Positions 43,506 to 51,879 are shown, numbered from the stretch's first letter. The stretch is DNA of 64,000 bases from a bacterium (GCA_030693235.1 JAUYBE010000006.1:71189-135188); one strand, 5' to 3'. Notes: generated by a model from the sequence alone, not told the origin. Program-made: numbers and translations.

Positions 43506-44174
43506 ATGAAAATAAAGGATTTACCAAAAATTGAGCGGCCGCGAGAAAAACTAATCGCGAAAGGAGCCGAGAATTTGAAGGACTCGGAACTTTTGGCGAT
43601 TCTCTTACGGACCGGTAAAACCGGGAAAAATGTGATTGAAATCGCTTCCCAGATTTTAACTAAGCATTCCAAGAAACGGCTTTTGCAAATGACCTATGAG
43701 GATTTATTGAAAATCGGCGGAATTGATTCCGCAAAAGCCACGACACTTCTTGCCGCTTTTGAGCTATCCAAGCGCGCGATTGAAGTTAATGACACGAATT
43801 TACCGACCATCGTTACCTCTAAAGATGTCGTGGCTCAATTGACCGAACTGCGCCACAACAAAAAAGAGCATTTTATCGCTCTGTACCTAAACGCCAGAAA
43901 TCAGCTGGTGCATAAAGAAACGATTTCAATAGGAACTCTGAATGCTAATCTCGTCCATCCGCGCGAAGTTTTCGAGCCGGCCATTAGGCATTCGGCCGCC
44001 AATATTATAGTTGCGCATAATCATCCTTCCGGAGATCCGAAACCGTCAGAAGACGATTTGGAGATTACAAAGCGATTAACGGAGGCAGGCAAGATAATGG
44101 GCGTTGAACTTTTGGATCATGTCATTATCGCGACAAACAGCGTTTTTAGTTTTAAGGATGAAAAGTTGTTATGA
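43506..44174 (+). CDS. radC: RadC-family JAB/MPN domain protein
   Basis: N-terminal HhH-like region. The C-terminal JAMM-like motif HNHPSGDPKPSEDD is diagnostic for RadC/UPF0758. Confidence 0.85.
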   Translation: MKIKDLPKIERPREKLIAKGAENLKDSELLAILLRTGKTGKNVIEIASQILTKHSKKRLLQMTYEDLLKIGGIDSAKATTLLAAFELSKRAIEVNDTNLPTIVTSKDVVAQLTELRHNKKEHFIALYLNARNQLVHKETISIGTLNANLVHPREVFEPAIRHSAANIIVAHNHPSGDPKPSEDDLEITKRLTEAGKIMGVELLDHVIIATNSVFSFKDEKLL

Positions 44175-45742
44175 GCACCAATATAAAAGATTTGGAAAAT
44201 AGATTATGGGAGGCGGCGGATCATATGCGCGCTAATTCACCGTTGCGCCTCAACGAATTTGCCGAGCCGGTCTTGGGTTTGATTTTCCTTAAGTTCGCGG
44301 GAGTAAGACACAATAAAGTCGCCGAAGAAATAGCCGAGGAAAGAAAAAAGAAAACCAAATCCTATGGCAGGGCTTCGGTTTCTCGCGAGCGGCCGGTATC
44401 ATCTGCCGATTATCATGCGCGTGGTGTATTGTTTGTTCCGGAAAAAGCTCGATTTTCATATCTCATAGAGTTGCCGGAAGGAGCGGACATGGGCAAGGCC
44501 GTTAATGACGCGATGAAAGAGATTGAAGCGGAAAATAAAGAGCTTGCCGGTATCTTGCCGAAAACATTTCAAAAACTTGATAATCGATCCATAATCGCGC
44601 TTCTAAAAAATTTCAATCAGATTCCAGACAATATTGAGGGCGATGCGTTCGGGAGAATCTACGAATACTTTCTTGGCAAATTCGCGTTAGCGGACGGCTC
44701 GCGCGGAGGCGAATTTTTTACGCCGACAAGTATAGTTAAACTCATCGTAGAAATCATTGAGCCGTATCAAGGCAGAATTTACGATCCGGCTTGCGGCTCC
44801 GGCGGGATGTTTGTGCAGTCGCACGAATTTGTAAAGCGGCACCTTGAGAACGGACAGAAGACAAGAGCTTCGCGTAAGATTGCGATTTACGGCCAAGAAA
44901 AAACAGACCAGACCGTTCGCATCGCAAAAATGAACCTTGCGATTCACGGCCTTTCTGGAGACATTCGCGAAGGTAATACCTATTACGAGGATCGCCATAA
45001 GAGTTTGGGCAAATTTGATTTCACGATGGCCAATCCTCCTTTTAATGTGAGCGGAATTGATTATGAACGGATAAAAGATGACCCTCGTTTTCCGTATGGC
45101 CTACCTAAGTCGGGAAATAAAGGAACAGACAATGGTAATTATCTTTGGATACAAATATTTTTAAGTTCGTTGAATAAAAATGGACGGACTGGTTTTGTGA
45201 TGTCTAATGCGGCAGGTGACGCTGGGCACAGAGAAAAAGAAATTCGTCAAAAATTAATTGAAGATGGGGTTGTGGACGTAATGGTCGCTGTTGGCCCTAA
45301 TATGTTTTACAATGTTCCACTTTCGGTAACCTTGTGGTTTTTGGACAGAGGCAAAAATAAGACAAATAGAAAGGATAAAATTCTTTTTATTGACGCGCGG
45401 AATATTTTTACTCCAATCCCAGACGACAGAGTAAAAAGATATTGGACCGATGAGCAAATAGAGCAAATCGCAAGCATTGTCCGAAGTTATCGCGGCGAGA
45501 ACGGAAAGAAATATCAAAATGTTAAGGGGCTTTGCAAAATAGCAACGATTGATGAAGTTAAAAAAGCCGGCTACTCACTCAACCCCGGCCGTTATGTTGG
45601 CGCTACCGACAACGGAAATGGAGACGACGGAAATTTCAAAGAAAAGGTTGAAAACCTTCACGGCGAATTTAAGGAACTAACCGACGACGCGCACAAACTG
45701 GAGAAAAACATTTTTGATAATTTGAAGAAATTAGATATATGA
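44171..45742 (+). CDS. hsdM: Type I restriction-modification system, DNA methyltransferase subunit M
   Basis: N6-adenine MTase motifs: motif I DPACGSGGM, motif IV NPPFN, and the HsdM N-terminal domain. The start overlaps the radC stop (ATGA). Confidence 0.9.
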   Translation: MSTNIKDLENRLWEAADHMRANSPLRLNEFAEPVLGLIFLKFAGVRHNKVAEEIAEERKKKTKSYGRASVSRERPVSSADYHARGVLFVPEKARFSYLIELPEGADMGKAVNDAMKEIEAENKELAGILPKTFQKLDNRSIIALLKNFNQIPDNIEGDAFGRIYEYFLGKFALADGSRGGEFFTPTSIVKLIVEIIEPYQGRIYDPACGSGGMFVQSHEFVKRHLENGQKTRASRKIAIYGQEKTDQTVRIAKMNLAIHGLSGDIREGNTYYEDRHKSLGKFDFTMANPPFNVSGIDYERIKDDPRFPYGLPKSGNKGTDNGNYLWIQIFLSSLNKNGRTGFVMSNAAGDAGHREKEIRQKLIEDGVVDVMVAVGPNMFYNVPLSVTLWFLDRGKNKTNRKDKILFIDARNIFTPIPDDRVKRYWTDEQIEQIASIVRSYRGENGKKYQNVKGLCKIATIDEVKKAGYSLNPGRYVGATDNGNGDDGNFKEKVENLHGEFKELTDDAHKLEKNIFDNLKKLDI

Positions 45743-51700: not shown

Positions 51701-51879
51701 TGGATTGGAAACGGAAAGAAGAAACGCGTGCCGATGTGAAAATAACGATCCGCGATATGCTTTACGACAATTTGCCGGAGCCGGCTTACTCCGAAAAAGA
51801 TTGCGAAGACCGTACCCAAAAAGTGTACTTCCACATTTACGACAGCTATGTGGACGCGAATGTAAATGTTTATGCATAG
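48757..51879 (+). CDS. hsdR: Type I restriction-modification system, restriction endonuclease/helicase subunit R
   Basis: 1040 aa. N-terminal PD-(D/E)xK region. SF2 helicase motifs GSGKS, DEAH (MADEAHRTQ), TGTP and QTIARANR. C-terminal helical domain. Confidence 0.9.
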   Translation: MNEFSEDKLVEQTAIKLFGELWGADNFANAYSGEMDAEFGRENPGEVVLMNYLKIALTKLNPDVSTEALNLAIDEIIKDRLTMSMVNANHEIWQLLRDGVKIETENEKGERQTETVKIIDFENPKENHFMLVSQIWITGELHKRRPDLIGFVNGIPLVLIELKASHKNLRNAYQQNIRDYKDTIPQLFWYNAFIIISNGIESKVGTLTGAYEHFNEWKKIKDEKEVGKVSLETVIKGTCEPAQLLDIIENFILFDDSRGERAKAIARYFQFFGVNRAFEQVKNRDKNKGRLGVFWHTQGSGKSYSMVFLSQKVFRKLTGNFTFVVVTDRKELDRQIYKTFSACGAVYENEVHADSVEHLQQLLKEDHRHVFTLIHKFAEPKELSNRSDVIVMADEAHRTQYDRMAANMRISLPKAAFIGFTGTPLMTGGEEKTRQAFGDYVSTYNFAQSVEDGATVPLYYENRVPKLENVNPDIQKDLERVMNFYDLAPEEEEKLEQEFSTFYHLITREDRLNKVAEDIVTHFTARGYNGKAMVVSIDKKTAVRMHAKVKEQMQRHLAKLNIALSKAVDEHEKEKVRQVIEQYEGIDMAVVVSQGQNEIADMEEFEIDMRPLRARIQNEDLETKFKDPDSNLRMVFVCAMWITGFDVLNLSTLYLDKPLKNHTLMQTIARANRVYPGKTNGLIVDYIGVFRNLQRALSIYATSETGASIDHIIKEKEKLVELLVSTVKQTREFLKKLDLDVDNLLKAKDTEKIRLVDVFTNSILQDEQTKKRFLDLASDTYQLYKAVLPEPKAEDYYHEVTAFKVIASRIKEVIEEEADVSQVKKDLEDLLDRSIKAGEFVIKEPKLKDLSHIDFEALRKFFDDTENKNIAAESLSAELEDKIKEMARKNKIRKHFLDRLNSLIHEYNSGSRDLDSFFEELLMLAKELSEEDARAIKENLTEEELAIFDLLVKENLSPDEADRVKKVAHELLAKLKTEKFVLDWKRKEETRADVKITIRDMLYDNLPEPAYSEKDCEDRTQKVYFHIYDSYVDANVNVYA

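Follow-up and report, generated by a model that had tools for sequence, protein, structure and literature searches.

Genes embedded in Type I restriction-modification (R-M), BREX, DISARM, and Hma systems have been catalogued by Payne et al. (bioRxiv 10.1101/2024.01.29.577857), with 96.7% of them co-oriented with their host and more than half of unknown function. Described passengers of Type I loci include prrC, embedded in a Type IC hsd locus (EcoprrI), tgvAB, embedded in a Type I hsd locus (PMC12409362), and DarTG2 of the RRDM island, which lies between hsdS and hsdR at a site that the paper on RptR called a potential recombination hotspot for defence systems (PMC12255303). Shedu nucleases are found in such surroundings as well: among 5,499 Shedu genes surveyed by Gu et al. 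(bioRxiv 10.1101/2023.08.10.552793; Mol Cell 2025), 602 are part of R-M systems, some of them Type I. Here, we analyze a 64,000-nt stretch of bacterial DNA (GCA_030693235.1 JAUYBE010000006.1:71189-135188, hereafter the window) from an uncultured bacterium of a small-genome lineage, in which an operon with the gene order radC-hsdM-X-hsdS-Y-hsdR (43506-51879, plus strand) carries two embedded genes, X and Y. We consider it likely that this locus is a complete Type I R-M operon, translated as a coupled unit, that carries two unrelated passenger cassettes, X in a variable slot between hsdM and hsdS (slot 1) and Y in another between hsdS and hsdR (slot 2). A preliminary description of the window had regarded the arrangement as undescribed, a claim that does not survive comparison with the literature, where Shedu within Type I R-M, cargo between hsdS and hsdR, and 'guilt-by-embedding' have all been published.

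Compared with known Shedu genes in R-M operons, Y shares the SduA_C domain, a full catalytic set, the Shedu fold, and the location within Type I R-M, but its N-terminal half matches no curated sensor domain, its host is an uncultured small-genome bacterium, and every gene junction of the operon is an ATGA overlap. Like DarTG2, TgvAB, and prrC, Y is a co-oriented extra defence gene between the specificity and restriction genes; unlike them, it is a Shedu rather than a toxin-antitoxin pair, a GmrSD-like enzyme, or an anticodon nuclease, and it is accompanied by a second variable slot between hsdM and hsdS. X, which is co-oriented with the Type I R-M and Hma systems that enclose it, belongs to exactly the class of genes defined by the PADLOC guilt-by-embedding approach. 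The locus does not overturn current understanding. It is one more case of defence genes nested in a Type I R-M operon, and it extends this pattern, and Shedu, to an uncultured small-genome lineage. It also shows cleanly that the two passengers are distinct cassettes, whose conservation far exceeds that of the hsd genes around them and whose borders fall at gene ends, within an operon family that has two cargo slots, the hsdM/hsdS slot being a so far undescribed addition to the known hsdS/hsdR position. Finally, X represents a defined but uncurated family that recurs inside Type I and Hma systems and is a candidate defence accessory or regulator.

A Coupled Type I Operon with Two Cargo Slots

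The six plus-strand open reading frames (ORFs) of the operon were confirmed, and an exact ATGA stop/start overlap is present at all five junctions (44171, 45739, 46401, 47657, and 48757), as the preliminary description had reported. By a crude gene call over the whole window, 4-bp overlaps occur at 10 of 54 same-strand junctions, and five of these ten belong to the operon; outside it the count is 5 of 49. Because this background rate is only ~10%, compared with five consecutive overlaps in the operon, the ATGA run is a real operon property rather than a product of chance. Together, the coupling and the family scans uphold the proposal that the six genes form a single Type I R-M operon, tightly coupled and with two additional genes embedded in it.

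The independence of those two genes is seen in the occupancy of the slots. We searched 106 X-bearing loci from genome and metagenome scans (identified below by L numbers, as are loci of the Y clade) with iterated hidden Markov models (HMMs) for Hsd, SduA, and RadC proteins; sampling was anchored on X or Y rather than on the host operon, and hence no association statistic is given for X and SduA. Within the window's X clade (at least 49% identity) the gene order is always hsdM-X-hsdS-variable-hsdR, with radC upstream in four loci. None of the 106 X-bearing loci yielded SduA in the iterated HMM search. Slot 2 of X-bearing relatives instead holds PIN_12 (L005), a PDC-S32-like protein with a coiled-coil protein (L007), ThsB-TIR with PDC-M50A (L035), 23S_rRNA_IVP (L032), a PDC-M14A-like protein (L024), or, elsewhere, uncharacterised proteins, and it is empty in L115, the locus with the closest X relative (89% identical). 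From the Shedu side, six of the eight sampled Y-clade loci have Shedu at the hsdS/hsdR position, while L112 and L113 carry it outside any hsd operon. Slot 1 of Shedu-bearing relatives is filled by X in L107/L108 and L114 (here a 210-aa relative with 33-36% identity), by Fic in L110, and by unrelated proteins of 221 aa in L109 and 297 aa in L111. The last two were considered as hidden X relatives and rejected (BLASTP E 1.3; hhalign probability 0.3%).

Conservation and DNA similarity follow the cassettes rather than the operon. Between L115 and the window, X is 89% identical, compared with 43% for HsdM, 28% for HsdS, and 35% for HsdR; between L107 and the window, X is 75% and SduA 48% identical, compared with 43% for HsdM, 27% for HsdS, and 31% for HsdR. 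Across relatives, the Hsd proteins are only 27-48% identical and Y 48-58%. In blastn comparisons of the window with its relatives, similarity is limited to X (45695-46424) or Y (47813-48740) and otherwise to short stretches, and on the X side it begins ~40 nt inside the hsdM 3' end. Because X and Y assort independently, have separate borders, and are better conserved than their hosts, they are two cassettes and not a pair, and the X+Y two-gene module proposed earlier is not supported. The simplest reading is that two separate cassettes have been swapped among diverged Type I operons via the two slots.

Short stretches of similarity are also seen at the ends of the host genes. The last ~40 nt of hsdM (45695-45738) and ~50-70 nt of hsdS (47591-47662) retain 76-85% DNA identity to the otherwise diverged L005, L007, L028, and L115. 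The hsdM and hsdS 3' ends are candidate homology arms for cassette exchange at both slots.

The host genes are canonical by Pfam, NCBIfam, and PADLOC, as the first reading of the window had it. hsdM (44171..45742, plus strand) encodes a 523-aa Type I N6-adenine methyltransferase (Pfam N6_Mtase 7.7e-88, HsdM_N 8.7e-19; PADLOC MTase_I 9e-198), the translation of which contains MANPPFN (NPPF motif) and DPACGSGG. hsdS (46401..47660, plus strand) encodes a 419-aa specificity subunit with two target-recognition domains (TRDs) (Pfam Methylase_S 8.8e-26; PADLOC Specificity_I 3e-73); the PADLOC model spans residues 9-419, and the halves 8-199 and 213-373 are matched separately. hsdR (48757..51879, plus strand) encodes a 1040-aa restriction subunit (TIGR00348, 508 bits) that contains an HSDR_N nuclease domain (residues 5-210; Pfam 2.1e-42), an SF2 DEAH motor (SWI2_SNF2, residues 270-483, Pfam 1.2e-72; MADEAH in the translation), a T1R_D3-like domain 3, and a HindI-like C-terminal domain (T1RH-like_C, 2.2e-42). 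With HsdM, HsdS, and HsdR each complete, the operon encodes a complete Type I R-M system, with methylation and restriction activities predicted from these domains. Fragments of a split Hsd subunit were considered for X and Y and ruled out: HsdR retains an HSDR_N domain of its own, both TRDs are present in HsdS, and X and Y contain no Hsd domains.

The first gene of the coupled run, ATGA-joined to hsdM, is radC (43506..44174, plus strand), which encodes a 222-aa protein with UPF0758_N and RadC JAB domains (Pfam RadC 4.6e-45; NCBIfam NF000642 242.7 bits, cutoff 180). This coupling, together with the recurrence of radC in related operons described below, hints at a RadC/JAB protein that moves with the defence locus rather than serving a housekeeping function.

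The six genes are probably read as one transcript that starts just before radC. A possible operon promoter, identified by eye, lies at 43474..43500 on the plus strand (TTGGCG, 15 nt, and an extended -10 TGgTAGAAT). The extended -10-like element finishes 5 nt ahead of the radC ATG, a position that suggests that the whole operon is transcribed with no leader or only a very short one. A consensus promoter scan did not report this candidate, its spacer being 15 nt, and promoter and terminator matches within the operon were not above shuffled expectation.

Related operons show some variation in the host genes. radC is also found directly 5' of hsdM in diverged X-bearing Type I operons (L033/L034 6663-7334, L035 3-395, L036 6792-7121). 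Related HsdM proteins carry an N-terminal DNA-binding fusion, MerR/HTH_17 in L114 (3467-5149) and a weak HTH_11 in L115 (722-2593), and the HsdM of the window has no fusion of this type.

A Shedu Nuclease and an Uncurated Winged-Helix Family

Y (47657..48760, plus strand) encodes a 367-aa protein identified as SduA by Pfam, PADLOC, Foldseek, and its NCBI name. Its N-terminal beta/alpha domain is followed by a helical linker and then by the DUF4263 PD-(D/E)xK domain at the C-terminus. Pfam SduA_C (PF14082, DUF4263) matches residues 202-351 with an E-value of 8.1e-15 and 55.8 bits (cutoff 27), and 16 PADLOC SduA models match. The catalytic motifs are intact: an alignment of 35 clade members shows no variation at D236, E250, K252, and Q281, and the spacing of these residues (14/2/29) nearly matches that of motifs II-IV in Bacillus cereus Shedu (D249, E264/K266, Q295; 15/2/29) (Gu et al., bioRxiv 10.1101/2023.08.10.552793; Mol Cell 2025). 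In a Foldseek search with the Y model, the best solved matches were Escherichia coli SduA (8ps4, 5.5e-8; 8ps5, 1e-7) and the B. cereus Shedu nuclease domain (8ti9, 2.5e-5), followed by EndoMS/NucS; the Shedu papers report the same ranking, with EndoMS/NucS next after Shedu proteins. Y is also matched to 8ps4 by phmmer (E 0.0068). Judged by these sequence and structure comparisons, Y belongs to Shedu SduA, a known defence family that has been characterised experimentally. The early suggestion that Y is a PD-(D/E)xK nuclease effector, with DUF4263/Shedu as a fold to look for, is thus confirmed by Pfam, PADLOC, and Foldseek, whereas its listing as uncharacterised has to be dropped, an identical protein already being named 'DUF4263 domain-containing protein' at NCBI (MDP3015015.1, on a 228-kb contig of a metagenome-assembled genome).

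In two related operons small unannotated ORFs adjoin the Shedu gene in the hsdS/hsdR slot (L109 6547-6999, 150 aa; L110 8087-8530, 147 aa). These could be Shedu partners resembling KELA, a small double-stranded DNA (dsDNA)-binding protein discussed below; the window contains no such ORF.

X (45739..46404, plus strand) encodes a 221-aa protein of an uncurated family. It has no match in Pfam or NCBIfam at E <= 0.1 and no PHROG family, and NCBI labels it hypothetical, so that its initial classification as uncharacterised stands. The sole database signal comes from residues 127-210 (~84 of 221), which match positions 173-257 of the 275 in PADLOC PDC-M14B (E 1.8e-8) and cover the beta motif and first bundle helices described below; the diverged X of L114 matches the same model. 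X differs from PDC-M14 in that this match is partial only and the window has no PDC-M14A-like gene (one occurs in slot 2 of L024). A literature search for 'PDC-M14' found no paper.

The predicted model of X comprises a winged helix (~residues 10-105), a beta motif SGINITNIxGVTVVGxNNVV (residues 112-135), and a four-helix bundle (residues 137-219), and structure comparison indicates that the winged-helix fold is MarR/PadR-like. The conserved blocks of the family alignment fall in all three parts: NLDYLVQxGW in the winged helix, the beta motif itself, and EQKL...DIxTIKxQLSKxxPDK in the helical region, where the polar residues K164, D170, Q177, and K180 of the bundle are invariant. Across the family, the winged helix is basic (median pI 9.5). 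The C-terminus is unlikely to act as a transmembrane segment or pore, as the Kyte-Doolittle hydropathy maximum is 1.13. X shares its fold with PadR/MarR regulators but differs from them in belonging to none of their families, in its extra invariant beta motif, and in its mid-operon place.

With clustering at 50% identity, an exhaustive profile search recovered 755 clusters of the X family, of which 427 reach E <= 1e-10. Nearly all members are stand-alone proteins of 210-230 aa, and one is fused to Sigma70_r4 and HTH_36. Genome matches were found in CPR bacteria, Planctomycetota, Nitrospira, Acidobacteria, Chloroflexota, Bacillota, and several archaeal phyla, and tblastn found none in plasmid or phage records (RefSeq-type). 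Among 88 distinct X loci, 67 have sufficient flanking sequence for their context to be assessed. X lies within 3 kb of hsd genes in 26 of these, between or beside HmaA-like SNF2 helicases and HmaB-like DUF1156 methylases in nine, and directly before the gene of a PDC-M19B-like protein in seven; the other 25 have none of these three contexts nearby. X is a frequent, not obligate, passenger of methylation-based defence systems.

From the modelled fold, X is most likely an autonomous nucleic-acid-binding accessory, regulator, or sensor. Tentatively, we suggest that X may be a family that has not been described before and has been widely transferred. It would serve Type I R-M and Hma immunity as a portable nucleic-acid-binding accessory and would move as a cassette via the hsdM/hsdS slot, with the conserved hsdM 3' end as a recombination border. 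If this is true, X would be, for example, a sensor or modulator that can be plugged into any methylation-based immune system.

Some X neighbourhoods beyond Type I operons were recorded. In L008 (6449-15769) and L010 (6041-14983), an X relative is flanked on one side by an HmaA-like SNF2 helicase, which contains a NOV_C domain, and on the other by an HmaB-like DUF1156 methylase; the methylase of L008 has an N-terminal NADAR domain. In L055 (1283-3238) and ten other soil-metagenome loci, a PDC-M19B-like protein of ~280 aa is encoded 20-67 bp after X; a search of Protein Data Bank sequences with this partner gave no match. At least four of the X/PDC-M19B-like loci, L055 included, have a convergent DUF488 (PDC-M19A-like) gene. 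This is a second recurring setting of X, and one that lacks hsd genes.

Alternative Explanations and a Proposed Mechanism

The co-occurrence of X and Y could be taken to mean that the two form one two-component abortive-infection module split around hsdS, an idea that goes back to the preliminary description. X would then be the DNA-binding sensor or adaptor and Y would supply the nuclease, in the manner of KELShedu. The published Shedu KELB requires the small dsDNA-binding partner KELA (PMC12577705), KELShedu likewise combines a DNA-binding-type protein and a DUF4263 nuclease in one transcription unit, X is a basic winged helix, all genes of the operon are translationally coupled, and the order hsdM-X-hsdS-SduA-hsdR recurs in the window, L107/L108 (X 75%), and L114 (X 33-36%). 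We nevertheless regard such a module as highly improbable, given that the nearest X (L115) has no gene at all between hsdS and hsdR, that SduA is missing from all 106 X loci of the genome and metagenome scans, that X-bearing operons have PIN, TIR, PDC-S32-like, or other cargo in Y's place, and that Y-clade Shedu accompany Fic or unrelated slot-1 genes or stand outside hsd operons, with separate borders for the two cassettes. The comparison with KELShedu also fails on geometry, as the gene for KELA, a 12.6-kDa protein, is separated by 3 bp from that of its Shedu, whereas the neighbours of Y are hsdS and hsdR, and the 221-aa X lies 1.25 kb upstream with hsdS in between and is usually found without a Shedu. 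X was rejected as a KELA on size and non-adjacency, judged from KELA's description and not its sequence. It is also improbable that Y acts as a PrrC-like guardian, kept inactive by its association with the Hsd complex and set free once the enzyme has been disabled by an anti-restriction protein of a phage. The position of Y would fit, since prrC is likewise embedded in a Type I hsd locus, Y is coupled to both of its neighbours, and 6/8 sampled Y-clade loci have Shedu at hsdS/hsdR. However, Y-clade Shedu also occur free of hsd genes (L112, L113), Y is 48-58% conserved compared with 25-33% for HsdS and HsdR, its supposed binding partners, slot 2 is used by many unrelated cargos, and characterised Shedu proteins act alone, sensing DNA ends or acting through N-terminal sensor domains. 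Apart from hsd embedding, X and Y have nothing in common with PrrC and RloC, as neither contains an ABC-ATPase or anticodon-nuclease domain by Pfam, NCBIfam, and PADLOC.

A further alternative, which we consider possible but doubtful, is that X regulates transcription of the R-M-type operon in which it resides, comparable in function to C proteins, RptR, or BrxR, and so tunes restriction against methylation after horizontal transfer. A MarR/PadR-type winged helix followed by a helical bundle is the architecture of PadR-type repressors, the wHTH is basic and the family is associated with Type I and Hma systems, the one fused family member carries Sigma70_r4 and HTH_36, and regulators of hsd islands with embedded defence genes do exist, RptR being an example. 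Against this stand the 25 of 67 assessable X loci that have no Type I, Hma-like, or PDC-M19B-like context, the absence of X from any Pfam regulator family, and the invariant K164, D170, Q177, and K180, which together with the invariant beta motif suggest more than dimerisation. RptR has 79 aa and four helices and is the first ORF of its island (PMC12255303), and C proteins, like RptR, are HTH proteins of ~80 aa encoded at the operon start; X was rejected as either on size, fold, and position, and RptR (9R2Z) is absent from its structural matches. Several observations weigh against our preferred reading of a Type I operon with two unrelated passengers, one of them a possible regulator. A regulatory role is weakened by the place of X in mid-operon rather than at the start with its own promoter, and no k-mer or palindrome was common upstream of X-bearing operons, in a small sample with diverged promoters. 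The recurrence of hsdM-X-hsdS-SduA-hsdR in three diverged loci (window, L107/L108, and L114) leaves some room for a functional link between X and Y, and ATGA coupling at all five junctions could reflect stoichiometric co-assembly rather than hitch-hiking. As for the structural models, the conserved beta motif of X is modelled at low confidence, the AlphaFold model of Y is only moderate (pLDDT 70), and the N-terminal domain of Y, a moderately confident beta/alpha fold, gives weak PC4/Pur-alpha-like matches only.

Under the two-cassette reading, we infer the following mechanism. The whole operon would be transcribed from the promoter before radC. In slot 2, Shedu would act as a self-contained anti-phage effector, as judged by homology, its N-terminal half sensing an infection-associated DNA feature and thereby licensing the C-terminal PD-(D/E)xK domain to cut DNA. 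In slot 1, X would be a soluble, basic protein made up of a MarR/PadR-type winged helix and a four-helix bundle, travelling with methylation-based defence. Such an operon would provide a layered defence in which the Type I enzyme restricts unmethylated DNA and Shedu serves as a second nuclease with a different trigger. Because E. coli SduA recognises free DNA ends, it is conceivable, as speculation, that Shedu acts on the ends made by HsdR cleavage.

Surroundings of the Operon

Upstream of the operon, and outside the coupled run, lies a gene (42204..43208, plus strand; GC 0.355) for a 334-aa RhuM and Fic/DOC protein (Pfam Virulence_RhuM 2.3e-24, Fic 4e-9; PADLOC PDC-S23 1e-124), named 'virulence protein RhuM/Fic/DOC family' at NCBI. 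PDC-S23 is a PADLOC single-gene candidate, which makes this an adjoining defence candidate, and the gene probably belongs to the same defence neighbourhood. Fic and RhuM genes also occur in or beside related hsd operons (slot 1 of L110; L113).

The spacer between this gene and radC was initially described as a tRNA cluster. ARAGORN and Rfam reduce the cluster to a single real tRNA, tRNA-Gly(CCC) (43280..43351, plus strand; Rfam tRNA 68.1 bits), with a degenerate tRNA-like piece on either side of it (43226-43262 and 43371-43451) that neither program calls. One of these remnants is a 5'-half-like piece; in the other, a GGTTCGATTCCC T-arm occurs together with a perfect hairpin (CCCCGTAAATTCAATT/AATTGAATTTACGGGG). 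Both pieces may stem from tRNAs that have decayed or from past integration events.

The description of the island as GC-richer than its surroundings holds only weakly, its GC content being 0.420 compared with 0.395 +/- 0.013 in 8.4-kb windows. The 0.420 of the island is reached by three of 79 other windows, and the GC content of Y is only 0.37. A compositional difference is better seen in tetranucleotide usage, for which the island is the most deviant 8.4-kb block in the window (about +3 SD). No att-like direct repeat or tRNA 3'-end duplication of >=12 nt in direct orientation bounds the island. Downstream of hsdR, a ~36-bp direct repeat (GTCTATGCTCTAATTCGCGCGAATAAGCGAATAGTT) is present at 52093-52130 and 52443-52478, its two copies flanking a 64-aa hydrophobic ORF (52204-52398), and may be a regulatory or genome-wide repeat element.

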